A stretch of 64,000 nt of DNA, taken from sequence record CP089609.1. One strand, 5' to 3'. The first letter of the stretch is position 1. Every line of letters begins with the position of its first letter. Below, piece after piece: positions 9,332 through 63,995 of this stretch. The notes beneath the pieces were generated by a model. That model ran no database searches, was not told where the DNA came from, and saw nothing but the letters and a program-made list of their open reading frames with translations. This DNA is from a plasmid. A program made the translations under genes and the position numbers.

Positions 9332-9604
9332 ATGCCAGCACAGTCCGGTGGCGACACCTACCCAATGACTGGAGATCCCGCGATCGACGAGGCGATCCGC
9401 CAGGTGTTCACCGATCTGGTCGACGTCCGTGACGCCCACGGCACGGGCCAAACTCCGGTGAGCGGCACCTATTTCACCGACGCGGCCAAAACGGCTTCGG
9501 CCATCCACACCGGGATCCAGGATGTCAGCCGGTCGGCCGGCACTCACTGGCACGGCGAGTCCGGCGATATCTACCAGGCAATCACCAAGCGCCTCGCAAC
9601 CTAG
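9332..9604 (+). CDS. Small hypothetical protein (90 aa)
   Basis: ATG preceded by a GAGGAG SD 8 nt upstream. Confidence 0.45.
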   Translation: MPAQSGGDTYPMTGDPAIDEAIRQVFTDLVDVRDAHGTGQTPVSGTYFTDAAKTASAIHTGIQDVSRSAGTHWHGESGDIYQAITKRLAT

Positions 9605-9639
9605 AACCCAGCGAAGAGTAACGACGAGGGGACTCAACA

Positions 9640-12971: not shown

Positions 12972-13066
12972 CCTCGTCCGGCCCCGACCGGTAGCAGCGC
13001 ACTTCCAGCGCCCATCCAGCCCGAATCGCCTGGGCAATACATCGGTGCGGGCGTATTGTCCGGCGC

Positions 13067-17252: not shown

Positions 17253-20200
17253 TCACATCGAGCCTTTCGGTCTGCGGCTTCTGCCGGCGCGGCGAGACCG
17301 CGACGGGTCGGCCGACGGTGTCGGTTCGGGGCCAGTGAGCACGGTGATGCGTGATCGGTGATGGCTGTTCTTGGTGATGCACAGGATCCGGTCAACGTGG
17401 GGTTCGATGCTATTGACCTTGTCGTCAGGTGCCCCGATGATCAGTTGGAAGCCCAGACCTTTCCATGCGGCCACAGCGCGGCCGGCGAAGGCGGCATCGG
17501 ATTTGATGAAGCCTTCATCAAGGATGATCGGCGCGTACCGAGGCCAATGGGCGTCGCCGAGTTGGTAGCGCAGCGCGGCGCCGACGATGAAGGCGATCAG
17601 TTCCTGGGATTCGCCGCCGGATTTGCCGGCCAGGCTGGCGTAGACGTTGAGAGTATTCCCGTCGAGGTCGCGGCGTTCGGCTTCTATGTAGACATGGCGC
17701 CGCACGTCGAGGTAATAGTCACGATCAGAGCCGCCGGCGGATTGCCGGATTCGTTGAATGAATCGGGCCAGGGCCAGGAATCGTTTGTGGACCGCGGAAT
17801 CGTCGTCGCCGGGCGCGGTGGTCGCTCCGGCCAGGGCCTTGAGTTCTTTGCGGAAGGCTGCGATATCGGGGGTTTCGGTGTGGCGCAGCGTAATGTGCAG
17901 TCGGTCGCGGCCGGCACCGAAGGGCAGTGTGGTCAAGATGTCGTTGATAGGGTTGAGTCGCGATTCGATGTCGTCGATGGCTTCTTCGAAGGCGCCGTGT
18001 AGCCGCAGTAAGTCGATGCCGGTCCAGTCGTTGACGTCGCGGACGAAGGTGGCTCGGCGGCGGTGCAAACCTTCGGCGGTGAGATCCTCGAAAATGTCTC
18101 GGTAGCCGGGGTAGGACGACACTTCGGTGCCCAGATCGGGGCGGGGCCATTGACGTTGGAAGGTTTCGAAGGTGCTGGTCAGCATCTTGGCTGCCCGTGC
18201 GGCGGCGTTGCGGGCGGCATCGATCTTGGCGTTGAGGGTGGCGTGCAGCCGGGCCAGCGCGGACCCGAACGCGTCTGGGGTGAGGTCGGTGGTGCCCACG
18301 GCGGCCAACTCGTCATCGAGGCGGGCGACCAAGGCGTCGGCCAGGATCGGAGCGCCGGCGGGTTCGACGAGCTCGCCGCGCCTGCAGTCCAGCCGCCTCA
18401 GCTCGTCGATCAGCCGCTCGGTGTCCGCCTCGGCGAGGTGTCGGGCTCGGGCGGCGGATTCGCGGCGGGCGAGCAATTCTTCACGGCGCGCTCCGGTGTC
18501 GGTGTTCCCCTCGACCAGAGCGGTGCGGTGGGCGTGCAGCGCGTCGAGCTGGGCTGTCGCGGCGGCGACGTCGACGGCAGGCCAGGTGGTGTCGGCTACG
18601 TAGCGGTGGGCGTCGCGGCGGACGGTGAGCTCGTCGAGATCGGTGGCGAGACTGTCGAGTTCTGCGGCGGCTGCGGCCAGTTCGGTCTCGGCTGCGGCCA
18701 GTTCGGTCTGCAGCTGGGTGCGGCGTTCAGCATTGGATACGCCGATCACCGGAGGCCGGCTACCGCCGTGGGCTCCTCGGCGTCCGCTCTTCGTTTGTCC
18801 AGTGATCGTCAGGCCGCGGTCCACGTCGTTCAGTTGCGCGGGGTCATCGACGCAGCGGTAGTCGAAGCTGGTCAGGATGCGGGTCATGAGCCAGCCCGCG
18901 AATGGTGAGGTCTCATCGACTCTCAACCGTGCGGGCAGCATCGCAGTGTCGGCGCAGTCTGGGATGGGCTGGTCGACGGGCGCTCCTTCGAAGTTGACCC
19001 GGCGCGGCAGCTTCAAGGTGTTGATTCGGACCCGGGCTTGTTCGATGCGCCGGGTATCGATCAGCACGGTGACCGAAAGGCCCCCCAGCGCGCGATCAGC
19101 GGCCAACCTCCAGTCGTGGAACCCGTCGGCCATGTCGAGCAGTTCTCCGACGAACGGCACCTCGTGGGGATCGAGTTCGAGCGCTTCGGCGATCAAGCAC
19201 CGCGCGTTGTGCAGTTCGGCGGGGATTACGCCGGCACGGCCGGCCAGCGAGTGCAGTTCGTCGACAAGGGCGCCGCGGCGGGCCTGCAAGCCTTGGTGGC
19301 GACCGACGGCGCGGTCGCGTTGCTCGCGCAGTTCGCCGGCGACGTGGGCATAGTCGACGGACAGGAATTGTGCTGCGGCGGCTTGAGCCGCCGCGAACTG
19401 CTCCGCACTCGATGGTGGATCACCGAGCACCGTGGTGCGTTCCCGGTAGATTTTGAGGGCCTGTTCGGTGTCTTGCTGGGCTTGTGCGACCTGTTCCAGA
19501 GTGCGATCGAGTTCATCGAGCGCGACCGTGCCGGGCTCGGTGTCACGTAGGGCAGCCAGTTCGGTCTCGGTGGCCCGTTCCGCTACTCGGGCCTCAGCTG
19601 CCCGCGCCTCGGCTGTAGCACGGTCAGCGGTGAGCTGTCCGATGGTCGCGTCGATCAGCCGCCGTTCGGTCAGTGTTGCCCACACCTGTATCGGCGATGG
19701 CGAATGATCGTCTGCGGCACCGACCAGCATGCTCAGCGTGGCGAGGTCCTCGTGTGCGCTGCTCCAGTCGCCGTACCATTCGGTGATCGGGGTGAGCGTT
19801 TCGACTTGCAGTTCAGCGGTTTTCATGGCCTCGTAGGAGGCTTGCAAGTCGTCGAAATGGGTGATCGCGTCATCGGCGACCGCCAGGGTCTTGGGTCGTT
19901 CAAGGACCATGCTTTTGAACAGGCCGTCCACGGTGGTGACCGCCCGACCGGCCTGGATCCGTGCCAGCAGTCCCAGTGCGCGCTCCCCTTCGCCGGGCAG
20001 GCCGATGCCCAGCCGGGTGCACACTGCGGTGCAGAACGCTCGGTATGACCCGTGAAAGTCGATGCCCTCGAACCGGGTCCGCAGTTGGGCTGGATCGAAC
20101 TGGGAGGGGGCGGAACTGGCGACCTCTGACAGATCGAATCCTCCATCGATGGTGGCCATCCGTTTGGTGATGTCGTCGAAGCGGGTGGCCGACGGCTGTG

Positions 20201-20615
20201 CGTAGTAGAGCCGCATCGCGGTGAACCGCTGATCGGATTCGGTTCGCCAGGTTGCTGCGATCGCCGACCAGGTCGGGGTGGTGCGACCGCGCAGCACCTG
20301 GTCGGTTAGGGCAGATGATCCCTCGACTCGGTTGTCGTCAATCTTTCCGCGCATGTACCGCAGCACATTTCGCTGATCGCCGCCCCGGGCTCGACCGGAC
20401 ACATTGTCGTTGGATGCGCCGTTGAACGGGATCCGCGAGGGCATCAGCAGCGCGATGTAGGCGTCGAGAAGAGTGGACTTGCCGGTGCCGGTCGCCCCGC
20501 TGATCAGCGTCGACGTCGTCGAGACCTCGACTCGGTGGTGCCCCTCGAAACCGCCCCAGTTCACCAGCTGTATCGATTCCAACAGCCACTGGCCGTGCAT
20601 GGTGTCCTCGGTCAT
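17253..20615 (-). CDS. jetC: SMC/MukB-like ABC ATPase, JetC/MksB-like (wadjet/Mks condensin-like system)
   Basis: 1120 aa. N-terminal LESIQLVNWGGFEGHHRV...LISGATGTGKSTLLDA (Walker A), about 800 aa of coiled-coil-type sequence, and a C-terminal signature GKSGGESQ, Walker B PIILDEGF and a D-loop. An ATGA overlap links it to the upstream gene. Confidence 0.75.
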   Translation of the reverse strand: MTEDTMHGQWLLESIQLVNWGGFEGHHRVEVSTTSTLISGATGTGKSTLLDAYIALLMPSRIPFNGASNDNVSGRARGGDQRNVLRYMRGKIDDNRVEGSSALTDQVLRGRTTPTWSAIAATWRTESDQRFTAMRLYYAQPSATRFDDITKRMATIDGGFDLSEVASSAPSQFDPAQLRTRFEGIDFHGSYRAFCTAVCTRLGIGLPGEGERALGLLARIQAGRAVTTVDGLFKSMVLERPKTLAVADDAITHFDDLQASYEAMKTAELQVETLTPITEWYGDWSSAHEDLATLSMLVGAADDHSPSPIQVWATLTERRLIDATIGQLTADRATAEARAAEARVAERATETELAALRDTEPGTVALDELDRTLEQVAQAQQDTEQALKIYRERTTVLGDPPSSAEQFAAAQAAAAQFLSVDYAHVAGELREQRDRAVGRHQGLQARRGALVDELHSLAGRAGVIPAELHNARCLIAEALELDPHEVPFVGELLDMADGFHDWRLAADRALGGLSVTVLIDTRRIEQARVRINTLKLPRRVNFEGAPVDQPIPDCADTAMLPARLRVDETSPFAGWLMTRILTSFDYRCVDDPAQLNDVDRGLTITGQTKSGRRGAHGGSRPPVIGVSNAERRTQLQTELAAAETELAAAAAELDSLATDLDELTVRRDAHRYVADTTWPAVDVAAATAQLDALHAHRTALVEGNTDTGARREELLARRESAARARHLAEADTERLIDELRRLDCRRGELVEPAGAPILADALVARLDDELAAVGTTDLTPDAFGSALARLHATLNAKIDAARNAAARAAKMLTSTFETFQRQWPRPDLGTEVSSYPGYRDIFEDLTAEGLHRRRATFVRDVNDWTGIDLLRLHGAFEEAIDDIESRLNPINDILTTLPFGAGRDRLHITLRHTETPDIAAFRKELKALAGATTAPGDDDSAVHKRFLALARFIQRIRQSAGGSDRDYYLDVRRHVYIEAERRDLDGNTLNVYASLAGKSGGESQELIAFIVGAALRYQLGDAHWPRYAPIILDEGFIKSDAAFAGRAVAAWKGLGFQLIIGAPDDKVNSIEPHVDRILCITKNSHHRSRITVLTGPEPTPSADPSRSRRAGRSRRPKGSM

Positions 20616-21325
20616 GGCTGCACCGCCTCATCGACCGGTTCGGCCGCCAGTTCCTCTGCGCTGCCGCCATTGTGGGCGCGCAGCCAGGTGCCCAATTCTT
20701 TGAGCCGGTCCAGTGACATCAGCGCTTCCACGATCGGGGCGACCTGGTATCGCTCGCCGTCGCCGGTGTCGATCAACAGGTCCAAGCGCACCAGTGAATC
20801 GATAGCGGCTCGGACCGCTTTCTCGTCGCGAACGTGGTTGGTCGCATCAGCGGGCCGGTAGTTGGCGGCCTCGGCCACCAAATCTGAGCGGTCGACGAAT
20901 ACCGCGGGGTCATCGAGATGACGCCCACGCAGCAGCATGCGTAGGTGCACGAGCAGGATCGTTTCTTCCCTCGAATAGCTCTGATCGTGCAACACCGTCG
21001 GGAAGGGCTGACTGCCTCCATCCGGGCGGGCATGACGCTTGTAGGCCACCGCCCGATCGGTATCGACAACCAACTGAATAAACAAATCGTTGAGCCGCGA
21101 CTCCAACAGCGGCCGGTTCTGGATCAGAACCCGCCAGTCAACAGGGTTGCGGTCGGCGGAAATGTAGCGCTTCTTCAACAAGGAAACCAGGGTCCGCCGT
21201 ACATCTGCACCCAACTGCCCCTGATCACCGTCGAACAGCGGCCCCGGGCCGTCAAAGTCCTCCACAGCCTCCGGTGCAGCCCACTGAGGGCCGATCATGT
21301 CTTCGCCGTCACGCATGTCAGTCAT
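20612..21325 (-). CDS. jetB: JetB/MksE-like protein (DUF4194-like)
   Basis: 237 aa when started at ATG 21325 (MTDMRDGED...). The upstream part of the longer ORF is out-of-frame Arg/Trp junk. It overlaps the jetA stop by 8 nt and the jetC start by 4 nt (ATGA). Size and pattern (VSLLKKRYISADRNPVDWRVLIQNRPLLESRLNDLFIQLVVD...) match JetB. Confidence 0.65.
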   Translation of the reverse strand: MTDMRDGEDMIGPQWAAPEAVEDFDGPGPLFDGDQGQLGADVRRTLVSLLKKRYISADRNPVDWRVLIQNRPLLESRLNDLFIQLVVDTDRAVAYKRHARPDGGSQPFPTVLHDQSYSREETILLVHLRMLLRGRHLDDPAVFVDRSDLVAEAANYRPADATNHVRDEKAVRAAIDSLVRLDLLIDTGDGERYQVAPIVEALMSLDRLKELGTWLRAHNGGSAEELAAEPVDEAVQP

Positions 21326-22840
21326 CGTCACCCCCGACCGCCGCGAGCCCGTCGCGATGACGCTCACCGAATGCGATCGCCGGCAGCCGAAGTTGCCGGT
21401 ACGTGCCATCAGCTCGCACCGTTTCGGCCACCTCGCCCCCCTGCGGATCTGCTTCGTCGAGCTCACCCAGGACCGCGGCCAGTTGCATGAGGCCGAACAC
21501 TTCGACGGGTCGTCGCAGCTCCTCGGGCAATCCGTTGAAGATGCTGCCCGCGCTGGTCTCGTCAGCCCCGGCACCGTCGATCGCCGCGGCCACCGCCGCG
21601 CGCAAAGCACGGACACTGGGCCCTCCACGCCGGCGAAGATCTTCCAGGGACGGGGCATCGGCCATGTCACCGGCGGTGTCGGCCAGGGGCGGGGGCGGCG
21701 CGTGCTCAGCCGGATCGTAGAAACGTTCCCTGGTATTGCCGATCGCCAGTCCGGACAACCCCAACTCCAACGGCACCCTCGCACGCGGCCCACTGAGCGT
21801 CATCCACTGTGCCAGTTCTTTTTTCGCCTCACGCAAGGCCTCATCGAAATCGCGATCACGCAGCGCATCATGGCTTGTGATGTAGGCGCGCAACGTTGAG
21901 GACAACCGTCTGCGAGCCTCCAGCACGGTGGTGATGCCCCGCCTGATGGACGTCACCGTCGCACGGAACTCGGCGACCTCGGTGGGCGGCTGCTGACTCG
22001 TGAACGGATGCGCGGTGATGCTATCGAGATCTCGGCGCAGCTGATTCATCAACGTCTCGTCACGGAGCAGTTCGACTGCACCCATAAACGCTTTGCCTTC
22101 AAGAGATTCCGACATGAGTCGCGCAGAACGGTCCAGATAGGTGTCGAGGACCTCGCCGGTGCGTCGGCCTTCCTGCCGGAATTCTTCGACCACACTGCGG
22201 TGAATCGTCTTCACGTGCTCGGAGAGCCGCAGAAAGTCGGCCGGGAGTTGAGCTGTCATGTCACGAATGTTCAGGTACTGCTCTACTACCCGCGCCTCAG
22301 GCACCATCGGCACTGCGCCGGCGGCGAGTTGATCGCGTTCAGCGCGCAGCTCGGCGATCTGCTCGTCGATGCGCGCCAGCCGCGCGTCGAGGTCTGGATC
22401 TGCATCCATAGCGCAGCGTCGAGCTGCGGCGATGATGGTGCGGATCCTCGATTGGCCGAACACTGATCGATCCCCGGCCACGCGGTAGACGTAGTCGATG
22501 GCCTCGCGGGCGTGGGAGGTCAGCGAATATTCTTCTCCGCCTTCGTCGCTCGGGCCAGGACGAGCCATTGTTCGCCGACCCAGCGTCGGCACAGTCCGCG
22601 GGCTGGTTCGTCGATGGTGTCCGCGCCGGCGGCGCGCAGTTCCCCCAGGAGTGCCTCGACGAGGGTGTGGAAGCGGTCGGCGGGCACCACGCGGTGTTCT
22701 TGGCCGAAGATCGTGGTGAACACGGCGATGACTACCGCGGCATTTTTGCGGGACATGAGGCTCAAGGTGGGTTTGTCGAATGCCCGCTCGGCGCGCGCCA
22801 GATCGGCGGCAACTCCGCTCATCGACGCAACTATCGGCAT
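21318..22840 (-). pseudogene. jetA: JetA/MksF-like protein (DUF3375-like) with an apparent frameshift near 22555-22580
   Basis: The N-terminal 100 aa (ORF 22840-22520: ...RKNAAVVIAVF...ADRFHTLVEALLGELRAAGA...RRWVGEQWL) and the remaining 420 aa (ORF 22592-21318: ...PGPSDEGGEEYSLTSHAREAIDYV...) lie in different frames overlapping by 70 nt. Together they reproduce the JetA layout (W-x-E-x-GWL then YP-GSDEP-YDLT). Confidence 0.65.
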
Positions 22841-23262: not shown

Positions 23263-23342
23263 GTCCGAAGACTAAGCCGGGCCCCCGACAAACCTCGGCA
23301 CCATTGCGCAGTCTCGGCCATGACCGGTTTCACGTCGGAGCG

Positions 23343-23362
23343 GGCATATACCTGGGGACATG
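23343..23362 (+). promoter_or_regulatory. Leaderless motif copy b (GGCATATACCTgGGGaCATG)
   Basis: Followed only by a 39-codon Arg-rich ORF; may drive a short or non-coding transcript upstream of palindrome copy 1. Confidence 0.4.
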
Positions 23363-23436: not shown

Positions 23437-23458
23437 TATACACCGCTACCGGTGTATA
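23437..23458. promoter_or_regulatory. Operator-like palindrome TATACACC-gctacc-GGTGTATA (copy 1); right half carries a TATAGT -10-like hexamer
   Basis: Perfect 8-bp arms with a 6-nt spacer, 38 nt upstream of the 23496 start. Confidence 0.6.
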
Positions 23459-25255: not shown

Positions 25256-25282
25256 TGAATGACCGGATGTCGCCCACCGACC

Positions 25283-25302
25283 GGCATATACCTCCGGGCA
25301 TG
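25283..25302 (+). promoter_or_regulatory. Leaderless motif copy c (GGCATATACCTCcGGgCATG)
   Basis: Ends in the start codon of 25300-26487. Confidence 0.5.
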
Positions 25303-33459: not shown

Positions 33460-33481
33460 AATACACCCATATCGGTGTATT
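33460..33481. promoter_or_regulatory. Palindrome copy 2 (aATACACC-catatc-GGTGTATt)
   Basis: 7/8 arms; upstream of 33639. Confidence 0.5.
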
Positions 33482-33638: not shown

Positions 33639-36053
33639 ATGTGCTATTCATGGCTCATGGTGTTCAACACTCCCGAGTTTGGCCGTATCGCTCGATCAGC
33701 TCGCGGTGAGCTCAGCCAGGACGACATCACCACCCGCGGCGGACCACCCCGACAACGACAGTCACCGATCGAGCGCGGCGATCGCGTCGAGCTGTCTGAC
33801 ACGGTTCTGGCCCAGCTGGACATGGGCTATGCGTGGGCGCCGGACACCGCCCGCGCACTGCTGGTCCGGCCCTCACGGCCGGAAGGATTCAGTGAGCAGT
33901 TCAGCGCACTGTCGGCAAACGCTTTGGGACTGGATGAGGACGGTGCCGACGTCCCACTGCCCGATCTCCTCGTGACCCGCTGTGCTCGCGACCTTCTTCC
34001 CGTCATCACGCGGTGGCCGGGACCTGTGCTGATCGGCGTTGCCAACGACGCCATGGCCCGCCGGGACCCCGATTCGCTCGCGGCGCTGATCGAGAACTGG
34101 GATGCGTGGACCGACGATGCCGATGATCCGTACCGCCGGCGCGAGTTCCATCTGCGCGCCGGATTACACAGTCCGGCCGCAGCTTCGGCGATCGCTCTGG
34201 ATCCCATCGTTGCCGTTCGCTCCTTCCGTCAAGTGGTTGACCTGTTTCTTTCGCTCGCCAAAGTGCAGACCTCTGTAGAACATGAGACTCGCGAAACGCT
34301 TGAGAAGCAGGCGTTTACGCTCCTGTTCGTTGCCAGTGAGGCTCGCCGCCGCGGTCTCGGCGCCGGGCTGAACGCCTTGGACGATCTGGCTGGCTTCATT
34401 CGTCAGGAACCTTCCCACGGTCTCGGCTGGCGGACCCCGCGCGACGGCGGCTGGGATGTCCAGAGCGATTGGGAGACGTTTCGCAACCACACCGGGCTCA
34501 GTTCTCGTTTCGAGAAGCCTCATGCCGGCCTCATCGCGGTGCTCGACGGTCTCAACGCCATCCGTGATTTCCACGTCGACGCCGAACTTGTCGATCCCTA
34601 CCCCGATGGTCTGGTCAATCCCGACGATCAGTACGACCCTGATCGGGCCGTTCAGCCGACGACGCAGCCTGCCATGCGCGCGATCACCGATCTCGACGAG
34701 ACCATCTTGTTCTACAACGCATCGTTGTGCCCAGAACTGCCGGTGATCGTCGACTGGGCCTATCGCGGACGTCCGCACCCACCACTGGTTATCAGTGACT
34801 TCCACGATACGACAAGGGGTTTGAGTAGCTCCAAGTTCATCATGGTCGACAACAACGCCGAGCTCGACACCGAGATCGCGAAGGCGCCGTTGTGCTCGCG
34901 CCTGGTGCAAACCGACAGCTTCGGGCGGGCAATCTTCGTCCCGGCCCGTTCGGCTTCAGGGCCGTCGCAGCCGGCCAGACACGTCTGGTTGGCTCGAAAT
35001 GGACGCATCACCTCCAACCGGTATGACGGTGCATCCCGTCTCACCTCGGCAGCCGCAGCCACCGAGGTTCGCGATTTCTACGACGCCCACAAGGACTCGC
35101 TGGGCCCTGTCCTCTACGCCCATCACAACCGCTTCGCCAGCCGCAGTCCCCTGCTCACCCTGGTCGACAACACTGGGCATCAAATGCTGCTCTGGGGACC
35201 ACCGGACCTCAAAGAGCGTGAGCACGGTCCGGGGATCGCTCCGGTAATCACCCCGACGCGCATGGCAATCGCATCCATCCTCGAGGAGGCGGGGTTCGGC
35301 TCGGTCCAGGCGATGATCGACGAAACCCACACCGCCGACAGAAGGCTGTTTCGCTCGAACCCTGATCTCGTGCTGACGTTCGACGTAGACCACGGTGAGG
35401 CCCAGCGCCAACTCGTCACCGTCAACGCCACTGAATTCACCATTGGGCTCTGCCTTTCCGACGACGAAGGCGCCCGCGAGCTGATGATCGACGCGATCTG
35501 GCGGCTCTGCAACGAGCGACCCACCCATGAGATCCGGGTGCTCACACTCATCGGGGAAAACCTATCGACGGACAGCCCGTGGACCGACATCACCAGGCAG
35601 CCTCACCTGTTGGCACACTTCTCACCAGCCAAACCGGCCGACCTCGATACCGTCCTGGAGAAGTTCAACGCGACGCTGCAACACGAAATCGACGCTCGCG
35701 AGGCGGTCCCCCGCCAACCCGGGATCTCCGGAATGCCCGCCCGCCGACAGCCTTTGCCGCACCTTCTGGTCGCCATCGACGGCTTCGCCGACGCCGAACG
35801 ACTGCTGCGTTCACCGGCGTTCTGCTACGCAGTGCAACACGGTAAAACCCTCGGTATCCACGTGGTGCTCTGCGGTCCCGGCCAGGCACTGGATTCCTAC
35901 AACCACCTCGACTGCTACCACGTCCCCAGCGCCGGACCGATCGTCATCGACTCAGAGGGGAAGTACCGCCCAGGGATCCCGAAGGTGGAAGGCGTCAACA
36001 CGCTCCCGGGGTCAGGGTCACAAAACCTAGCCGCCAACCCTTTCCAGCGGTAG
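33639..36053 (+). CDS. Large hypothetical protein with C-terminal degenerate FtsK-like domain (Walker B only)
   Basis: 804 aa. The C-terminus has PHLLVAIDGFADAE and KTLGIHVVLCGP, which correspond to the Walker B and arginine-finger regions of the FtsK-like proteins at 6177 and 36840. No P-loop was found. Confidence 0.6.
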   Translation: MCYSWLMVFNTPEFGRIARSARGELSQDDITTRGGPPRQRQSPIERGDRVELSDTVLAQLDMGYAWAPDTARALLVRPSRPEGFSEQFSALSANALGLDEDGADVPLPDLLVTRCARDLLPVITRWPGPVLIGVANDAMARRDPDSLAALIENWDAWTDDADDPYRRREFHLRAGLHSPAAASAIALDPIVAVRSFRQVVDLFLSLAKVQTSVEHETRETLEKQAFTLLFVASEARRRGLGAGLNALDDLAGFIRQEPSHGLGWRTPRDGGWDVQSDWETFRNHTGLSSRFEKPHAGLIAVLDGLNAIRDFHVDAELVDPYPDGLVNPDDQYDPDRAVQPTTQPAMRAITDLDETILFYNASLCPELPVIVDWAYRGRPHPPLVISDFHDTTRGLSSSKFIMVDNNAELDTEIAKAPLCSRLVQTDSFGRAIFVPARSASGPSQPARHVWLARNGRITSNRYDGASRLTSAAAATEVRDFYDAHKDSLGPVLYAHHNRFASRSPLLTLVDNTGHQMLLWGPPDLKEREHGPGIAPVITPTRMAIASILEEAGFGSVQAMIDETHTADRRLFRSNPDLVLTFDVDHGEAQRQLVTVNATEFTIGLCLSDDEGARELMIDAIWRLCNERPTHEIRVLTLIGENLSTDSPWTDITRQPHLLAHFSPAKPADLDTVLEKFNATLQHEIDAREAVPRQPGISGMPARRQPLPHLLVAIDGFADAERLLRSPAFCYAVQHGKTLGIHVVLCGPGQALDSYNHLDCYHVPSAGPIVIDSEGKYRPGIPKVEGVNTLPGSGSQNLAANPFQR

Positions 36054-36102
36054 CCCTGTTCCCGAATCGCACCGCACTAACAACGAACTCACCCGTGCGT
36101 GG

Positions 36103-36714
36103 CTATCCGCAGATGCTCGACTCGTGTTGGCGGTAGAAGGTCCGCGCGGCCGGCACCTCATCGGCGTAGGGCCCCAAGAACGCCGCTCTTTGCACTGCTT
36201 GCGCGGCAACGGCTTCCGGCATGTGTTGCCAGCCCGCGATCTTCTGCAGCGCGTCGAAGAACCGATGGGCGGCCATGCTCGGCGTCATCCGCTCGACAAC
36301 CGAACCCCAGTCTGGGCCTTGCAGAAACAGTCCCACGGCCTGGCCGTTGTCGAGGGCCAGACCGTCATGGCGCATCGCGAGGGATTCCGGCACGCGTGGG
36401 TTCGCCACATTCCGCATTCCGGTTTCACGCTGTGCGGCGATCAGTCCGGCGACGATGCCTCGCTGGGGGATCCCCATGTGTCGTCCGGTCGAGATGATCG
36501 ACACACCGTAGTCGGCCGGGCCGCTCACCTCGTGAGAGCATGGCGCCGCCGCTGTCGTCTCGGGCGCGGCGATAATGTCCGGGCTGACTATTCGAAGGCC
36601 CGCCAGCACCGGCGCGGCCAGCGCAATAACCAGGGAGGCCGCGGCGCCCAGGACCAGCCGCCGGCCGCGGCGATCGCCGCCCGCGCCCAGCACGCGCTCT
36701 TCAGGTGTGCTCAT
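36103..36714 (-). CDS. Secreted transglycosylase-like protein (paralog of the central domain of 3726-4922)
   Basis: GQAVGLFLQGPDWGSVVERMTPSMAAHRFFDALQKIAGWQHMPEAVAAQAVQRAAF aligns with GSIGIMQQQWPWWGTMQELMTPAIAARKFYEALLKVANWQNLPVTVAAQSVQGSAL. N-terminal TM. Its start sits at a conserved leaderless motif. Confidence 0.65.
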   Translation of the reverse strand: MSTPEERVLGAGGDRRGRRLVLGAAASLVIALAAPVLAGLRIVSPDIIAAPETTAAAPCSHEVSGPADYGVSIISTGRHMGIPQRGIVAGLIAAQRETGMRNVANPRVPESLAMRHDGLALDNGQAVGLFLQGPDWGSVVERMTPSMAAHRFFDALQKIAGWQHMPEAVAAQAVQRAAFLGPYADEVPAARTFYRQHESSICG

Positions 36715-36731
36715 GTCCTGAGGTATATGCC
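36712..36731 (-). promoter_or_regulatory. Leaderless motif copy d (minus strand) for 36103-36714
   Basis: The reverse complement reads GGCATATACCTCAGGACATG. Confidence 0.5.
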
Positions 36732-36822
36732 GGCACGCTCGCTGATCCGGTCAACTGGCTGCGCCTCCGATCGAGCCGCCCGTCTCTGACGCCGGATGTG
36801 TGACCGGAATAATCGATGGACG

Positions 36823-36842
36823 GGCATATACCTCAGGGCATG
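36823..36842 (+). promoter_or_regulatory. Leaderless motif copy e for 36840-37610 (divergent from copy d, 110 nt apart)
   Basis: GGCATATACCTCAGGGCATG. Confidence 0.5.
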
Positions 36843-37610
36843 ACCGTCCATACGCAGTTCGTAGCGCATACGAAGTCACTCGCGCAGCCGCCGCTGCATC
36901 CCGAGGCGGTCGACGCTCACGCGGCGATCACGGACTATTCGCGGTTCACCGTCGCCCTGGCCGAAGACAATGCCGGCCGCATGCTCTGCTGGCGACCGGT
37001 GGACTGCCCGCACCTTGCTGTCGTCGGCGACTCTGGGTGCGGCCAGACCGTCACCGTCCAAAACGCTGTGGTCCAGTTCGCGCGTGCGCATTGGGCCGTG
37101 CACGTCGCGGCGCGGTTCGACTTCGAGTACGAACAGTTCCGCGCGTGGCCGAATGTGCGGTGCATCGCCACCGATCCGGATACGCAGATCGCGTTGATCG
37201 GCCATCTGAAGCAGATTCTCCGGCAGCGGCTCCTCGCGGGTCGCACCCGTGTCCCTGCGCCGATAGTCCTGCTGGTCGACAACCTCTACGAGCTCACCGG
37301 AAATTTCTCGTTCGCCCACGCCTATTCCGGGACGCCAACCTCGGATCCAGCCACCACTGATCTCCGCCTTCTGCTGCGGTACGGCCGCCGGGCGCGCATC
37401 CATGTGCTGACAGCGACAATGCCCCGGAGCCACGCCGCCCAGCTCGACGGCGAAACCCGTGAGCATTTTGTGGAACTGCCCCTCAGCCGCCGCCATCACG
37501 GGCCCGACTTATCGGCATATCTCGACGAGGACCGCGGATTCATCGCCCACCGCAATCTCGCCGTTCTTCGACCCACGCGCACCAGCTACGAGCCGCTGGA
37601 CCTGAACTGA
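36840..37610 (+). CDS. Stand-alone FtsK/SpoIIIE-like ATPase domain protein (Walker A + B)
   Basis: Walker A VVGDSGCGQT, Walker B IVLLVDNLYEL and an R-finger region RARIHVLTAT. Paralog of the C-terminal domain of 6177-8452. Starts at a leaderless motif, divergent from 36714. Confidence 0.7.
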   Translation: MTVHTQFVAHTKSLAQPPLHPEAVDAHAAITDYSRFTVALAEDNAGRMLCWRPVDCPHLAVVGDSGCGQTVTVQNAVVQFARAHWAVHVAARFDFEYEQFRAWPNVRCIATDPDTQIALIGHLKQILRQRLLAGRTRVPAPIVLLVDNLYELTGNFSFAHAYSGTPTSDPATTDLRLLLRYGRRARIHVLTATMPRSHAAQLDGETREHFVELPLSRRHHGPDLSAYLDEDRGFIAHRNLAVLRPTRTSYEPLDLN

Positions 37611-37662
37611 CCGGTGCTGACCTGTTGCAACCCTTTCAGCACCAACGAAACGGAGACCCACC

Positions 37663-38229
37663 GTGACCAATCATGCTGACTTCCCCACGCGTCCAACATG
37701 GTTGACCCGCACCGTGCGTGCGGGTACAGCCCTGGTCCTGAGTGTGGGGTGCTTCGGCGCGGGATGGTGGACCGGCGCGAGGACCACCAGCGACCCGGTA
37801 GCGCACCAGGTGGCCGCCGATATGCAAACGTGCGGCGCATTCCAGGCGATTGACCACCTGGCCGATGAATCGAAGGATCCACTGTCTGGCCCCCACGGGT
37901 CGACGCAGACACACGATTTCATCGCCCTGTCCTCGGCAATGAACAACGCCCGGGCAGCAGAGCTTTCCGACTCGCTCGATGCTGCGGTCACGACCTACGT
38001 GTACGCCCTGGCGAATCTGGGTGCGGTCGTCAACGCCCGGGAGCCGATCGACGACATCGAGTCGATGCGCCTGATCGTGAATCTGAGCGCGCACACCGTG
38101 GCCACGGTATGCCAACGACCAGCCACCGATCGAACCTCGGGGACCGCCGATCACGGTGCCGATGAGGCCGCCACCCAGACGCATCGTGACGTCCACGGCT
38201 CGCAGTCCACAGCCACCGACCACCCGTGA
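37663..38229 (+). CDS. Secreted hypothetical protein
   Basis: GTG start with a GGAG SD. Signal peptide/TM segment TALVLSVGCFGAGWW. Confidence 0.5.
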   Translation: MTNHADFPTRPTWLTRTVRAGTALVLSVGCFGAGWWTGARTTSDPVAHQVAADMQTCGAFQAIDHLADESKDPLSGPHGSTQTHDFIALSSAMNNARAAELSDSLDAAVTTYVYALANLGAVVNAREPIDDIESMRLIVNLSAHTVATVCQRPATDRTSGTADHGADEAATQTHRDVHGSQSTATDHP

Positions 38230-38283
38230 CCCTGCCCAACACCCAACCATCGCCGCCGCGGTGACAGGATTGGCATGCGCGCC

Positions 38284-38303
38284 GGCATATACCTGTGGTC
38301 ATG
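38284..38303 (+). promoter_or_regulatory. Leaderless motif copy f for 38301-38807
   Basis: GGCATATACCTGTGGTCATG. Confidence 0.5.
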
Positions 38304-38807
38304 ACCAACGAATTCGCTGACCGCACTAAGCCGACCGAGGTCGCCAACCTGGCGGCCTATGCCACCAAAACCGGATGGGCGGTGAGTGTTCTCACGCTCA
38401 AGGACTCCACACACCACGGTATCGACGACCCCCGTATCGACATTGCCTCCACCCCCGACGACCATGTGAAGCTCATCGCCCGCCTCTATGCGCAGATGCA
38501 GCAGCGGGCCGCGGCCGAGCCCTGCCAGGATCCACCGGTTCTCCTGGTCATCGACGAGTACGCCGATGTTTCTTCCGCCTTGGAGAGCTGGAGGCAAGAC
38601 CACCCCGACGCCCAGGCCGGTCGGCAGCTGCGGGAGCTTTTCCGGCTCGGCCGCCGACAGAAGATCACCGTCATCGCCCAGAGCCGGCGGCCCGCACCGG
38701 ACTTCTTCCCCGCTGAGCAGACAGCAGACCTCACCAACCGTCGGGTAGGGCCCGGCGCGCTCCCCTACGCCGTCATCCAGCAGTACTTCGGATCATCGCC
38801 GCAGTAA
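38301..38807 (+). CDS. Degenerate FtsK-like fragment (Walker B + R-finger region, no P-loop)
   Basis: PPVLLVIDEYADV and RLGRRQKITVIAQSRRP match the Walker B and arginine-finger region of 6177-8452 and 36840-37610. Starts at a leaderless motif. Confidence 0.5.
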   Translation: MTNEFADRTKPTEVANLAAYATKTGWAVSVLTLKDSTHHGIDDPRIDIASTPDDHVKLIARLYAQMQQRAAAEPCQDPPVLLVIDEYADVSSALESWRQDHPDAQAGRQLRELFRLGRRQKITVIAQSRRPAPDFFPAEQTADLTNRRVGPGALPYAVIQQYFGSSPQ

Positions 38808-38837: not shown

Positions 38838-40835
38838 TCACGAGAGGCCAGGAGCCTCCGCGCCGGCCAGGACGGATCTCAGCAGCGCAGTGGCGGCGGC
38901 CACCTTGGCTGCGGTCTTGGCTGGCGCTGCCGCGGTGTACGTGACACCGGCCAACGTCGCCCTACAGGTGAACCCGTCTTCCTGAGTAGGCCCGGCCGGC
39001 GCGACATTGAACTCCACAGGGCCCAGCGACTGGCTGGCGGCAAAACCCGTCAGCCAGCCGACCGGATTGGCGAAAGCGTTCGTCCGCTTGACGTCGCTCA
39101 TGCTGGCGACTTTTCTGCGAGCCGTTTCCGGCAGGAGCATCTCCCCGACGTGCTCCGGTACAGTCGGCGCCGCCGGCGCCCCGGTCTGAGTCGTTGGCTG
39201 CAGGTTCGCTGGCACCGGGGCCGGCGGATCCGCCGGCCAGGAGACCGCCTCATCGACTGAGTCTGTGTGTCCGCACACCACGTCGAGCAGTTCCCACATC
39301 GCTTGTGTGGAGGCGGTTTTCTTCGATTCCCCGATCTGCCACCGGCCCACACCGTCCCCGAGCCGTGCGCGGGCGGCGAACAGCGGTTGATGGATTGGTC
39401 GGCTCGGATGGTTCTGTATGTCGATCTCGGCGCCCTGATCGGTGCCGAGGATCTGGGATCGACCGCTCAGTGCGCTGGGACCGAATTCGGGGTGCACCTC
39501 ACGAACTTTGGCGAAGAATCGTTTCCGGATGCCATCCCAGGCCGAGCTGGTGGTGGCCAAGCGGGCAATGTCGTTGGCTACCAGTAGATTTTCATCGAGC
39601 CGGCGGCACAGTTCGGCCTCGATTCCCGGCGCGGGTCCGGTGGCGGTCATCAGGTCGAACATCTTGCGCCACTGCTTTTGATCGAGCGCATCGTAGTTTC
39701 GGTCCAGGATGTGTCGCGCGCTGACTTTGCGGCTCATCTGCTTGAAATGGTCGGCGGTCTCGTTTCGTTTGGCGTCGTTGGATGCGTTGATTTCCGTGGC
39801 GATCGCCGCCAGTTCGTCGGAGCTGTAGACGGCCGGTCCTCCGGCAAGGTGATTCCACACAATCCGTTGAGTGATCAGGTCGGCATAGCGGCGCAGTGGG
39901 GAGGTCACATGGGCGTAGGCGGGCAACCGCAGACCGTGGTGCCCTCGCGGCCGCGGTTCATAACGGGCGCGTCCGAAGGTGCGGGTGACCCGCTGCGCGA
40001 GCTGCTCGAACAACCCTGGATCGTGCAGCGCCGCAGCGAGGTCGGCGGCGATTTCGCGGCCATCGCTGAGCAGGTTGGATTGGTGATTGCGGTAGAGGAC
40101 TTCCAGTCCCTCGTCGATGCACCAATCGGCCAGGGCGCTACTGGCTGCGACCATCAGTTCGGTGTTGATGAGATATCCCACGGTGCGTTGAGCCGGGGGA
40201 ATTTCGGTGAGTTGGCCGTCCTCGGTCACGGTGATTCCGTGGACGAGGTCGTACACGGTGGCCGCACCGGCGGCTGAGCGTCTGGCGAACAGCTGCTGGG
40301 CCAGCCGGTGCGCGGCGTCGAGCATCGGGTTCAGCTGATGCCCTTGCTCATGCAGCACCTTGGGGACGTCCTTGTAGGACAACCGTATGCACGTCCCGGC
40401 GGGCAGAAAGCTCTGGCGCACCGACACCTCGGTGCGTTGCCCGGTGGCATCGAACACCGCTGCGATGGTCAGTGCCGAGCGATCCAGACGGTCGGACAAT
40501 GTGACCTCACGCTCGACTTCGCCGAGCATCGGAATGGTTCTACGTGGCAGATATCGTGAGGCCACCCGGGCCCGGGCCAGCCGATCGTGCTCGCTGTCGC
40601 GCGCGATAACAGCCGCTGTGGCGGCGACGTGAACGGTCAGATTCCATCCTCCGTCAGCGATGGGCTCGACGGTCAGGGCATCGTCAAGGTCGATACTGCC
40701 CGCAGGATCGATCATCACTGCTGACCCGCGCCATTGTCGGCCGGACGCGTTGGGGCAGCTCGCGGTCGCAGTTGGACCGGGTGCTGGTGTCGAGTGGATT
40801 TCGGTCACGGTTTCGGCAGGTCGTTCGCAGCGCAC
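38838..40835 (-). CDS. RNase II/R-family (RNB domain) exoribonuclease with C-terminal dsRNA-binding domain
   Basis: RNB motifs IDLDDALTVE and HHGLRLPAYAHVTSPLRRYADLITQRIV. No N-terminal cold-shock/S1 domains. C-terminal ...FTCRATLAGVTYTAAAPAKTAAKVAAATALLRSVLA is a DSRM-like pattern. The true start may be the internal MIDPAG (about 40715). Confidence 0.7.
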   Translation of the reverse strand: MRCERPAETVTEIHSTPAPGPTATASCPNASGRQWRGSAVMIDPAGSIDLDDALTVEPIADGGWNLTVHVAATAAVIARDSEHDRLARARVASRYLPRRTIPMLGEVEREVTLSDRLDRSALTIAAVFDATGQRTEVSVRQSFLPAGTCIRLSYKDVPKVLHEQGHQLNPMLDAAHRLAQQLFARRSAAGAATVYDLVHGITVTEDGQLTEIPPAQRTVGYLINTELMVAASSALADWCIDEGLEVLYRNHQSNLLSDGREIAADLAAALHDPGLFEQLAQRVTRTFGRARYEPRPRGHHGLRLPAYAHVTSPLRRYADLITQRIVWNHLAGGPAVYSSDELAAIATEINASNDAKRNETADHFKQMSRKVSARHILDRNYDALDQKQWRKMFDLMTATGPAPGIEAELCRRLDENLLVANDIARLATTSSAWDGIRKRFFAKVREVHPEFGPSALSGRSQILGTDQGAEIDIQNHPSRPIHQPLFAARARLGDGVGRWQIGESKKTASTQAMWELLDVVCGHTDSVDEAVSWPADPPAPVPANLQPTTQTGAPAAPTVPEHVGEMLLPETARRKVASMSDVKRTNAFANPVGWLTGFAASQSLGPVEFNVAPAGPTQEDGFTCRATLAGVTYTAAAPAKTAAKVAAATALLRSVLAGAEAPGLS

Positions 40836-41216
40836 GCATTGGTGACGGGAAGCGTCGCGATCATCGTGTCGAATCGCCTTCTTTGATCTCGACGTGACGC
40901 GTCATAGCTGGTGACTCTCCTTCACATCCCCTGTGGTTGTACCGGCCAGGGTGACCCAATTCTGGTCATCGTCTCATTGGCGATTGTTTCCGCGACAGCC
41001 GATTCGTCGGCTGGACAGCAACACCCGCCACTACCAGCGGATTCACCCACGGCGGATACACCGCATTCGGTCTATATTTGCCACCACCCCTGTCCGCCCT
41101 CCTCGATGGCGGCGCGAGAGGGGCGATCGCACAGACCCCGTCCGCCCGTGCTCTTGAAAGACCCCATGCCACCCGAAAACCGGCAGCCCTGGACTGACCG
41201 GATCAGCCAACCCTGT

Positions 41217-41236
41217 GGCATATACCTCAGGTCGTG
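41217..41236 (+). promoter_or_regulatory. Leaderless motif copy g (GTG variant)
   Basis: GGCATATACCTCAGGTCGTG, upstream of the family-A gene 41398. Confidence 0.45.
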
Positions 41237-42376: not shown

Positions 42377-42398
42377 TATACACCCTTTTAGGTGTATT
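42377..42398. promoter_or_regulatory. Palindrome copy 3 (TATACACC-ctttta-GGTGTATt, TATTGT -10-like)
   Basis: Between 41398-42315 and 42515-42805. Confidence 0.55.
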
Positions 42399-47246: not shown

Positions 47247-47537
47247 GTGTGATGTAGGGGCACCGCCCTCGATCCGCATTTCATGTTGGAGCACCAAGGG
47301 ATATGACGCTCGCCGATGCGGCACTATTCGGTTACGCCAGCACCGACAACGCTCGGCCACCGGCAGTGGTGATGAGCTACGGCATGGGCCTGGATTCATC
47401 GTCATTGTTGCCGACCGCAGCTGTACTGCAGGGAATGTGACTGAGCACCTCACACACGCGGTGTGGGCGACACACACCCCGTGTGGGTCGCCTGGCTAGA
47501 GATGCGTACTGATCGTTGACCGGATCTCCGAAACCCC

Positions 47538-47558
47538 GGGCATATACCTGTGGGCATG
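47538..47558 (+). promoter_or_regulatory. Leaderless motif copy h for 47556-48902
   Basis: GGGCATATACCTGTGGGCATG. Confidence 0.5.
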
Positions 47559-48902
47559 AGCAACATGTCGACTCAGGCGACGACACTGGATGCCTTCAAC
47601 GACGCCCCGCACACCTGGATCGAATGCTGGGATGAGGAGGTCGAGCCGCTGCGAGCCGCGGCGCTGGCCGCCGGCTGGACGTGGCATTGCGTTGATACCT
47701 CCGAGGATCTCCCGGCCCTGCTCTGGGCCCTTGAGCTCGCCAGTTCCCGCCACCAGAACCTCATGCCGGCAGAGCGCCGGCGCTATCTGGCGGCGGTCGG
47801 CCACGTCGTGATCGCCGTCGGCCCCGGCTACCAGGGCAGCTACCGCTATCTGAGGTGGATTGCACGGGCGGGAGCGCGCACCGGAATTCACCTGGCTGTC
47901 GCTGCCAGCCACCGTCGAAACCCCCTGGCCCCTCAGGATCTCAAGGACGGCATCACCGATCCACCGAGTGCGTACGTGGGCCCGGTGTCCGGCTGCGCAG
48001 CCGCCGCGCGGTCCAGCGAGCACCCGTGGCTGCCCACGTCGCCCGATGGGCACGGGCCCGACGACTACAGCGCACCGGCGGCCGGTCTCCTGGGTGCCTT
48101 CCGGCATCGCCTGCGCCGGCGTCGTAACGCCGATCGTCGAGTCCGTCCAGAGCAGCGGGTGTGTTCGGAATCGGATCTGGCTTGGCTCGATGACGATCCT
48201 CGGGTTCAGCTGATCGTCGCTACGGCCACGCGCGAGGGATGGCGCCGTGAACCTGGCGCCCAGACGGCTGTGTGGCGGTTCGTGCACGACATCGGGACAA
48301 CCCTCACGGTGCACTGGGGGACTCCGGAGATGCCGCTACTTCACGCCGCAGCGACCGCGACGGCGACGGTACGTTGGGGCGCCGTCACCTTGCCCGTCCT
48401 GGTAGCTGCCGGCGACACCGCCAGCAGCCCGGCCGACAACATCGTCTTGGCTTGCGACGCCGACGCCCAGTGGATCGAATCGCAGATCGATCGGGTTCAG
48501 AACTTTCTCCGTAGCCATCCCGCCGAATATCGCGTCATGTCCCAGATCTCGGCCGACCCGCGCGCGCGTTCGGTGATCAATACCGCTGAGCAACACGGCT
48601 GGGAAATTCACCCGCACGACGTGGACAGGTGCACCTTCGCCCGAGGTGGAACCGAGATCTGGCTTCGCTGGGGCATCATCGATTGCCCATGGCCATTCCT
48701 CTATGCGCACACCGCCCCGCACGGCGATGGGCCCTCCGTCTACCTCTCTCATGGGGATGATCCTCCCGAGGAGCAGCTCGTGGCCATGCTGCGATTCCTC
48801 GCGGCCCCAGACACCGGCCCAACAGGCGCTTCCTCCAATGCAATCGAGCCGAAAGGCCACAGCTTCGAGTTAGGAGACACATCACTCAATACACCTAAAT
48901 AG
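47556..48902 (+). CDS. Hypothetical protein, paralog family A (long form)
   Basis: Homolog of 41398-42315 (see above). ATG 47556 sits at a leaderless motif. The stop overlaps a palindrome copy. Confidence 0.55.
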   Translation: MSNMSTQATTLDAFNDAPHTWIECWDEEVEPLRAAALAAGWTWHCVDTSEDLPALLWALELASSRHQNLMPAERRRYLAAVGHVVIAVGPGYQGSYRYLRWIARAGARTGIHLAVAASHRRNPLAPQDLKDGITDPPSAYVGPVSGCAAAARSSEHPWLPTSPDGHGPDDYSAPAAGLLGAFRHRLRRRRNADRRVRPEQRVCSESDLAWLDDDPRVQLIVATATREGWRREPGAQTAVWRFVHDIGTTLTVHWGTPEMPLLHAAATATATVRWGAVTLPVLVAAGDTASSPADNIVLACDADAQWIESQIDRVQNFLRSHPAEYRVMSQISADPRARSVINTAEQHGWEIHPHDVDRCTFARGGTEIWLRWGIIDCPWPFLYAHTAPHGDGPSVYLSHGDDPPEEQLVAMLRFLAAPDTGPTGASSNAIEPKGHSFELGDTSLNTPK

Positions 48903-48909
48903 GTGTATT
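48888..48909. promoter_or_regulatory. Palindrome copy 5 (aATACACC-taaata-GGTGTATt), overlaps stop of 47556-48902 and lies 73 nt upstream of the Rnl1-like gene
   Basis: Seen directly. Confidence 0.55.
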
Positions 48910-51122: not shown

Positions 51123-51144
51123 CATACACCGCTTCGGGTGTATA
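51123..51144. promoter_or_regulatory. Palindrome copy 6 (cATACACC-gcttcg-GGTGTATA, TATAGT)
   Basis: 43 nt upstream of the 51187 TTG start. Confidence 0.55.
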
Positions 51145-57209: not shown

Positions 57210-57282
57210 CCGACAAGTCCCCTTTCTCACCCCGACACTGACAATTGGATCGCCCACTGCTGACCGGATCGCCGGACCAGCC

Positions 57283-57302
57283 GGCATATACCTCCGGGCA
57301 TG
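57283..57302 (+). promoter_or_regulatory. Leaderless motif copy i for 57300-57713
   Basis: GGCATATACCTCCGGGCATG. Confidence 0.5.
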
Positions 57303-57713: not shown

Positions 57714-57816
57714 AAGTCAGGCACCGGGCCGCCTGCCACACTGAAACGCACGGCATTGCCCCCGGCCCGCCGTTGCCGATGTTCACCTCGCCGGTGACCG
57801 GATCACCGAATCGGCC

Positions 57817-57836
57817 GGCATATACCTCAGGTCATG
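57817..57836 (+). promoter_or_regulatory. Leaderless motif copy j (tiny ORF, then 57948-58220)
   Basis: GGCATATACCTCAGGTCATG. Confidence 0.45.
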
Positions 57837-61094: not shown

Positions 61095-61116
61095 TATACA
61101 CCGCCTCAGGTGTATA
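61095..61116. promoter_or_regulatory. Palindrome copy 7 (TATACACC-gcctca-GGTGTATA)
   Basis: About 100 nt upstream of the deaminase-fusion gene. Confidence 0.55.
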
Positions 61117-63973: not shown

Positions 63974-63995
63974 TATACACCTGCTGCGGTGTATA
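63974..63995. promoter_or_regulatory. Palindrome copy 8 (TATACACC-tgctgc-GGTGTATA, TATAGT) at window end
   Basis: Perfect arms; an extra TACACC half-site lies just upstream (63966-63971). Confidence 0.55.

Follow-up and report, generated by a model that had tools for sequence, protein, structure and literature searches.

A predicted accessory set of three degenerate FtsK/EccC-like proteins, a GH184-type muramidase and a small membrane-anchored protein conserved on a Mycobacterium-type conjugative plasmid

A 64,000-nucleotide stretch of plasmid DNA (sequence record CP089609.1), referred to below as the window, was analyzed with the focus on five genes located between 33.6 and 38.8 kb, termed p804, p203, p264, p188 and p170. 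The results indicate that this cluster is a conserved accessory set, predicted to encode three pseudo-ATPases with the FtsK/EccC fold, a membrane-anchored muramidase of the GH184 family and a small membrane-anchored protein. Judging from the alignments, none of the three FtsK/EccC-like domains appears to possess a complete catalytic site, i.e. a full Walker A motif together with the Walker B Glu and the Arg finger. Our favoured explanation, which is put forward tentatively, is that the three proteins act as non-catalytic modulators or adaptors of the plasmid's own TraB-type transfer ATPase.

Results

The five-gene cluster and its paralogues

The window (G+C content approx. 64%) carries a conjugation module of the Gram-positive/actinobacterial type, and the plasmid is a Mycobacterium-type conjugative plasmid. 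Two genes of the module provided the reference paralogues for the cluster proteins:

3726-4922, plus strand: cell-wall hydrolase of the type IV secretion system (T4SS), with a GH184 muramidase domain and an NlpC/P60 domain; paralogue of p203
6177-8246, plus strand: complete coupling ATPase of the TraB/TcpA type (FtsK/SpoIIIE-like, 689 amino acids (aa)), with the motifs GPTGSGKT and VLLVLDEF

The ATPase, which shares approx. 35% identity with the FtsK/SpoIIIE proteins encoded on Rhodococcus plasmids, had already been recognized as complete in an earlier, sequence-only reading of this DNA, although its open reading frame (ORF) ends at 8246 and not, as given there, at 8452.

The genes of the cluster were called by third-position GC, in agreement with the calls made on the same DNA in public assemblies. 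They comprise the following features:

33639-36053, plus strand: p804, 804 aa (possible alternative start: ATG 33657, MVFNT)
35370-35933, plus strand: degenerate FtsK/EccC-like domain of p804, residues approx. 578-765 (based on profile, AlphaFold2 (AF2) model with Foldseek, and alignment)
36103-36714, minus strand: p203, predicted membrane-anchored GH184-family muramidase, paralogous to the N-terminus of 3726-4922, with a conserved E97
36816-37610, plus strand: p264, stand-alone FtsK-like domain (the promoter unit described below implies the ATG at 36840 as the start)
37663-38229, plus strand: p188, with a single N-terminal hydrophobic anchor (GTG start, GGAG 8 nucleotides upstream)
38295-38807, plus strand: p170, FtsK-like domain lacking strand beta1 and the P-loop (the promoter unit implies the ATG at 38301 as the start)

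Single-sequence searches of Pfam, NCBIfam and the PDB with p804, p203, p188 and p170 gave nothing significant, and a megablast search with the region 33.0-39.5 kb against phage and plasmid collections produced no match at the DNA level. Paralogy, profile searches and fold searches together bore out the earlier suggestion that the resemblance to FtsK extends beyond short motifs, and this was true for all three proteins: the C-terminal domain of p804, p264 and p170 each have a RecA-like/ASCE fold of the FtsK type. The Walker A consensus GxxGxGK[ST] is absent from all three, and the Walker B consensus hhhhDE is present in p170 only, the Glu being missing from p264 and from the p804 domain. Direct reading of the translations, without a predictor, gave no evident transmembrane segment in p804, p264 or p170.

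The C-terminal domain of p804

p804 is composed of an N-terminal helix-turn-helix (HTH) of the XRE type (residues approx. 10-60), followed by approx. 500 aa with no assigned fold and then by the FtsK/EccC-fold domain. Assignment of the N-terminus to the XRE family is suggested by its HTH_3-like sequence with the recognition-helix signature ...IERG...; the family profile matches C.BclI (2b5a, E 1e-4), and the HTH_3/HTH_31 matches of p804 homologues are weak and below threshold.

The C-terminal domain was invisible to comparisons with single sequences and with three sequences, and became detectable only once a library-wide HMMER search had supplied homologues of 28-40% identity. The resulting 10-sequence profile matched EccC (4nh0, E 3e-11), EccC5 (7np7, E 1e-10) and EssC (5fv0/4lya, E approx. 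4e-10), followed by YukB (E 2e-6) and FtsK (E 0.03). Foldseek searches with the AF2 model of the domain (predicted local distance difference test score, pLDDT, 70.7; predicted template modelling score, pTM, 0.72) returned EccCb1-D2, FtsK, EccC and EssC as the top matches (E 7e-8 to 1e-5), with a probability of 1.00 for EccCb1-D2, FtsK and EssC. The profile and the model thus describe a complete FtsK/EccC-fold domain, and not solely the Walker B/R-finger piece that had been read at this C-terminus. The P-loop is shortened throughout the family (hhhhG-D-x-E..T in place of hhhhGxxGxGKS), and Walker B reads LLVAIDG in p804 (hhhhDG in the family), without the catalytic Glu. The domain is kept in full-length homologues of 28-40% identity, and is missing from shorter ones of approx. 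430-535 aa.

The probability given by hhalign for a match between this domain and the p264 family remained low (0.6% with 3 sequences, 11% with 10), which places it closer to EccC and not among the near relatives of p264 and p170. NCBIfam models of EccCb/EssC were matched with 13 bits, against a cut-off of 347. The AF2 model of full-length p804, built from 5 sequences, had a pLDDT of 35, which is too low for use.

The stand-alone domains p264 and p170

p264 can be aligned over 224 aa with residues 280-502 of the resident TraB-like ATPase (31% identity, E 6e-32). Its description as a stand-alone FtsK-like domain is therefore sustained by the paralogy, but the two Walker motifs previously ascribed to it are altered: Walker A reads GDSGCGQT (Lys replaced by Gln) and Walker B reads VLLVDN (Glu replaced by Asn). 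The two substitutions differ in their distribution. The alignment revealed the Walker B Glu in no member of the family, D-S/N/G being found throughout, whereas GxxGxGKT is kept by the distant members P0004-P0009, so that GDSGCGQT is a property of the lineage of the window. The p264 family, which carries its own C-terminal motif, LRPTRxSY, has 11 members among 5.8 billion proteins, all of 218-274 aa except P0009 (409 aa), and extends down to 41% identity with the family-specific motifs kept. P0009 (locus L010, 8001-9230) has an N-terminal hydrophobic segment, a canonical GKT and a D-S Walker B, and is encoded approx. 6 kb from VirB4/TcpC genes.

p170 aligns with residues 347-506 of TraB (E 2e-12) and matches the p264 family (hhalign probability 96%, E 2e-9). 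In agreement with the earlier view of this protein as a Walker B/R-finger fragment, its first residues directly follow the position of the P-loop, Walker B is intact (VLLVIDEY; INEY in one relative), and the Arg of its TNRR motif is aligned by MAFFT with the TGR of TraB, which we take to be the position of the FtsK Arg finger.

A split TraB composed of p188 and p170 was discounted, as no TraB-like remnant was found upstream of p170 in any frame and p188 is unlike TraB. The longer genes that follow p188 in loci L006 and L007 are not full-length ancestors of p170 but transposases of the insertion sequence (IS) type at contig ends. A gene for a 168-aa protein in locus L013 is not a p170 orthologue (25% identity, no tblastn match). 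The transposase gene (at least 476 aa; L006 11591-13018, L007 8260-8532) occupies the place expected for p170, and both contigs end inside it.

The muramidase p203 and the small protein p188

p203 is 33% identical to the N-terminal domain of the NlpC/P60 hydrolase encoded at 3726-4922 (E 6e-28), which agrees with the paralogy noted previously, although not with the family named at that time. No Pfam SLT match was obtained for either protein. A joint profile of the two matched the GH184 structures 8b2h (E 6.7e-25) and 8b2e (E 1.9e-22) over the whole catalytic domain, and the invariant E97 of p203 is aligned with Glu41 of KsGH184, a residue shown by mutation to be essential (PMC10394673); the equivalent of Asp66 is also kept. 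On the basis of these profile matches and this alignment, the p203 domain is predicted to be a GH184 muramidase and not an SLT-type lytic transglycosylase. The translation has an N-terminal hydrophobic anchor. It had been overlooked that the gene lies on the opposite strand.

No homology of p188 was detected outside the close plasmid group. The gene is probably co-transcribed with p264, since GGAG is located 8 nucleotides 5' of its GTG start.

Promoter units

A promoter-like unit, TGACCGGA-N16-CATATACCT-N6-(A/G)TG, occurs in 10 copies in the window, each ending exactly on a start codon (the expected count is 0.01 for the core CATATACCT-N(4-7)-RTG), which implies leaderless transcripts. This putative class of leaderless promoters is represented in the cluster by three copies:

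36712-36753, minus strand: unit of p203 (TGACCGGA-N16-CATATACCT-N6-ATG)
36801-36842, plus strand: unit of p264, with the start at ATG 36840
38262-38303, plus strand: unit of p170, with the -35 sequence TGACAGGA and the start at ATG 38301; conserved in L012 and L014

The other copies are located at 5225-5266, 23321-23362, 25261-25302, 41195-41236, 47517-47558, 57261-57302 and 57795-57836. The leaderless motif had been assigned to most genes of the cluster; this holds for p203, p264 and p170, and not for p188 and p804, which are not preceded by the unit. Because the unit fronts not only these three genes but also the T4SS-module gene at 5264, co-regulation of the cluster genes with the T4SS module is suggested. 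It is kept before the orthologues in relatives, and also precedes a 46%-identical p264 homologue of M. hubeiense (L009, 7961-8003).

The palindrome that had been seen upstream of p804 was confirmed:

33460-33481: 22-bp palindrome formed by AATACACCCAT and ATCGGTGTATT, putative operator, conserved in L012, L013 and L014

Palindromes of this type (WATACACC-N6-GGTGTATW, with no more than 2 mismatches) were found in 8 copies in the window, against 0 expected, and lie upstream of the genes for DnaB, p804, an RNA ligase and others. They probably constitute the operator of a plasmid repressor, as far as can be deduced from their sequence and placement. The remaining copies are at 13036-13057, 23437-23458, 42377-42398, 48888-48909, 51123-51144, 61095-61116 and 63974-63995.

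Conservation and selection

The same DNA is present in many public read-set assemblies, and a diverged copy occurs in Mycobacterium sp. SWH-M3. The synteny of the five genes is conserved in at least 4 lineages, down to approx. 69% aa identity; the orthologues in the diverged loci L012, L013 and L014 (69-84% aa identity) are intact, and no internal stops were found in 4 lineages. Pairwise ratios of nonsynonymous to synonymous substitution rates (dN/dS), from comparisons reaching a dS of 0.7-0.8, were 0.29-0.35 for p804, 0.25-0.42 for p203, 0.21-0.39 for p264, 0.25-0.48 for p188 and 0.33-0.36 for p170. The corresponding pN/pS ratios were 0.30-0.52, with Fisher p values from 3e-3 (for the p804 C-terminal domain alone) to 1e-38. 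The dN/dS ratios are significantly below 1 for every gene and show that all five are under purifying selection.

Such a pattern is difficult to reconcile with the view, one of two offered in the sequence-only reading, that the cluster consists of the decaying remnants of a duplicated transfer module. Several features do recall decay: catalytic residues have been lost in all three domains, p170 seems 5'-truncated exactly at the P-loop, the Walker A Lys of p264 was recently replaced by Gln (GKT is still present in relatives at 70% identity or less), p170 is gone from L013, and a transposase gene follows p188 in L006 and L007, at contig ends. However, the frames are intact in every lineage, selection is evident from the ratios given above (dN/dS 0.21-0.42), and each gene's own promoter is conserved. 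The p804 domain is also kept, in its degenerate state, in homologues down to 28% identity, and the p264 family spans to 41% identity with its specific motifs conserved. Decay is therefore already largely refuted, and we regard it as highly improbable.

Co-inheritance of the cluster genes

Among 5.8 billion proteins, the three families for which there are no Pfam models are very rare (11, 5 and 4 hits), and scans of genome collections with the p804 and p264 profiles detected only M. hubeiense and one distant metagenome-assembled genome. Where members of the p264 family were found in distant loci (L009-L011), no homologue of p804, p170 or p203 was present within 8 kb on either side; likewise, no p264 homologue was found near the p804-family genes of L002 and L016-L019, some of which are on short contigs. 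p170 is missing from one relative, Mycobacterium sp. SWH-M3 (L013). Comparison of the window with L014 revealed a nucleotide identity of 97-99% over 31.3-36.0 kb (including p804) and of 75-81% over 36.3-39.2 kb. This sharp fall between p804 and p203 points to a recombination breakpoint, at which p804 appears to have been uncoupled from the other four genes.

L011 also contains (9562-10398) a gene for a stand-alone EccC/FtsK-like protein of 278 aa with degenerate motifs (GAPGAGTT and IIDN), located 1 kb downstream of the p264-family gene and beside DarT/DarG-like genes. Orphan genes of this kind seem to recur on related plasmids.

These data bear on the second earlier proposal, a multi-subunit ATPase with domains supplied in trans as in EccCa/EccCb. 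Such an assembly, stacked or ring-shaped and analogous to D1-D3, would be formed by the p804 domain, p264 and p170. The best solved matches of the p804 domain are indeed D1-D3 of EccC/EssC, the graded degeneracy of the three domains recalls the DUF/D1/D2/D3 series of EccC, and close relatives preserve the cluster and its synteny. Nevertheless, an obligate split motor is unlikely, because co-inheritance of the families breaks down in distant relatives, p170 is missing once and the breakpoint splits off p804. An obligate complex is further argued against by the lack of any subunit with a full catalytic site, and hence of a motor domain, and by the surroundings: EccCa (TM-DUF-D1) is anchored in the membrane and is co-transcribed with EccCb (D2-D3) in a type VII secretion system (T7SS) locus, whereas the cluster genes have separate promoters, p804 belongs to another regulon, a minus-strand gene lies in between, and no T7SS core genes (EccB/D/E, MycP, WXG100) were found among the neighbours. 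We accordingly give the multi-subunit explanation little credence.

Genetic surroundings of the cluster

Apart from the two reference paralogues, the transfer module includes the following genes:

16-1545: VirB4-like AAA_10 ATPase
1542-3698: gene for a 718-aa protein of the conjugation module

The cluster is separated from the T4SS genes by approx. 25 kb, and its neighbours are accessory genes, including those of toxin-antitoxin, Wadjet-like and RNase types. What it has in common with the T4SS module is limited to two types of domain, namely the FtsK-like ATPase and GH184 muramidase domains; in and beside the cluster there is no second VirB4-like gene (the sole representative being that at 16-1545) and no further paralogue from the T4SS module. 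The designation of the cluster as a second conjugation-like module was thus an overstatement.

The rest of the window is accessory cargo: DnaB, Wadjet-like JetA/JetC, HipBA, a Gp49/HTH_37 pair, DUF6166, an RNB nuclease, an RNA ligase and a Dam-like methylase. Details of three of these loci are as follows:

13067-15157: DnaB helicase (696 aa), with approx. 250 extra residues between the N- and C-terminal domains (the DnaB_C match is in 2 stretches), which may be an intein or an insertion
17253-22592, minus strand: Wadjet-like anti-plasmid genes borne by the plasmid itself, encoding a 1120-aa SMC/JetC-like ATPase (AAA_29, SbcC_Walker_B) and a DUF3375 JetA-like protein
38838-40835, minus strand: RNase II/R-like RNB nuclease with a C-terminal double-stranded RNA-binding motif, convergent with p170; kept in all relatives, with the lowest dN/dS of the region (0.16-0.19)

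Discussion

A possible role in the control of DNA transfer

With the motifs described above, none of the three FtsK/EccC-like domains would be expected to hydrolyse ATP alone, and all three seem to retain the scaffold on which ring ATPases oligomerise. A scaffold kept without ATP hydrolysis suggests that the proteins serve to contact a partner, such as the TraB motor or its substrates. In our preferred, tentative explanation, the pseudo-ATPases would contact the TraB/TcpA-type ATPase encoded at 6177-8246, or its substrates, and would thereby tune or gate DNA transfer in the manner of the degenerate D2, D3 and DUF domains within EccC. The HTH of p804 may serve to hold its ATPase-like domain on DNA or to link that domain to regulation, while p203 could add local cleavage of peptidoglycan. 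The paralogy of p264 and p170 to the resident TraB, and of p203 to the T4SS hydrolase, speaks in favour of this role, as do the placement of the p804 C-terminal domain in the FtsK/EccC family, the state of the motifs, the observed selection and synteny, the shared promoter, the recurrence in L011 and the precedent of TcpB of pCW3 (see below).

Several observations weigh against this explanation. The resident TraB (31% identity) is no nearer to p264 than are large FtsK/SpoIIIE proteins annotated on other actinobacterial plasmids, whose ATPase domains give 28-34%, and hence there is no sign of co-evolution between p264 and TraB. Given its features, P0009 may be the working coupling protein of its plasmid, so that some members of the p264 family are perhaps active in this capacity despite a D-S Walker B; this weakens the label of pseudo-ATPase for the family as a whole. 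The absence of p170 from L013 is a further difficulty. Finally, an accessory setting rich in conflict genes, at such a distance from the T4SS genes, fits a role in conflict or defence equally well.

In a conflict system, the pseudo-ATPases would be dominant-negative poison subunits that block the FtsK-type translocases of related plasmids (entry exclusion, fertility inhibition) or of phages, with p170 donating an Arg finger without binding ATP, and with the muramidase and p188 acting at the envelope. The company of the JetA/JetC Wadjet-like pair, HipBA, the Gp49/HTH_37 toxin-antitoxin pair, DUF6166 and the RNB nuclease is consistent with such a system. So are the variable presence of p170 and the divergence of the block at 36.1-38.8 kb, which is the most diverged (75-81% identity, against 87-99% in the flanks) and has dN/dS values above those of the neighbouring RNB and DUF6166 genes, as is typical of arms-race genes. 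PADLOC returned weak matches to mad8, but these reflect the generic FtsK fold, since TraB scores better on mad8. No match to a known exclusion or defence family was found, and there is no overall positive selection (dN/dS below 0.5). On balance, a conflict role appears possible, if rather doubtful.

A further conceivable mechanism, which we consider unlikely, would have the pseudo-ATPases insert, as trans-acting subunits, into a hexameric translocase of the TraB/TcpA type, or cap it: p170 would contribute an Arg finger while itself binding no ATP, p264 would fill a position in the assembly as a spacer incapable of hydrolysis, and p804 would provide a DNA-tethered dock. The activity and partner specificity of such hetero-oligomeric motors would be set by their dead subunits, in a trans version of EccC D1-D3-like regulation, with the effect of gating the plasmid's own transfer or of poisoning rivals. 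That the proteins have some function other than those considered here seems somewhat unlikely.

FtsK/EccC ring ATPases drive both conjugative DNA transfer in actinobacteria and type VII secretion, and their regulation is only partly understood. Conserved and selected stand-alone dead copies, one of them fused to a DNA-binding domain, offer a testable case of regulation or sabotage by pseudo-enzymes, and the GH184 muramidases, a family defined only recently, gain bacterial members linked to a T4SS. Should the proteins merely fine-tune transfer, they would be of specialist interest; if they prove to be exclusion or poison subunits, they would represent a new mechanism of plasmid competition.

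Comparison with known systems

Our literature search returned no description of stand-alone degenerate FtsK-like plasmid genes. The closest solved matches of the p804 domain, in both sequence and structure, are EccC and EssC, with which it shares the FtsK/SpoIIIE-like fold. EccC exemplifies how ATPase-like domains whose catalytic motifs are impaired take on regulatory or receptor roles. There, such domains are joined to an active D1 within one or two chains anchored in the membrane and encoded in a T7SS locus, whereas the cluster encodes three separate soluble proteins, none with a complete site and one fused to an HTH, with no T7SS genes nearby.

The plasmid's own ATPase, to which p264 and p170 are paralogous, is of the type represented by TraB of Streptomyces and TcpA of pCW3. 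Both of these are anchored in the membrane, and their Walker motifs are intact; in contrast, the three proteins of the cluster are domain-sized, cytoplasmic and degenerate, and are encoded approx. 25 kb from the T4SS genes.

The systems closest to p203 are the GH184 enzymes (KsGH184, 8b2e; TtGH184, 8b2h) and the N-terminal lysozyme-like domain of phi29 gp13. p203 keeps the equivalents of the catalytic-domain residues Glu41 (of KsGH184) and Asp66. It differs in being bacterial, in having an N-terminal membrane anchor and in lacking an SH3-like wall-binding domain, and its muramidase domain stands alone, whereas the T4SS hydrolase carries the same domain fused to NlpC/P60. The latter protein (3726-4922) has the glycosidase plus NlpC/P60 (CHAP-like) layout typical of TcpG, TraG of pIP501 and PrgK. 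p203 corresponds to the glycosidase half of these proteins, but lacks the peptidase half and is encoded outside the T4SS operon, on the strand opposite to its neighbours.

Finally, pCW3 has a second FtsK-like protein, TcpB. An extra FtsK-like gene of variable presence is a feature that this conjugative plasmid and the one studied here have in common. TcpB is dispensable for transfer as well as variable in its occurrence (PMC6137059, PMC3181468).

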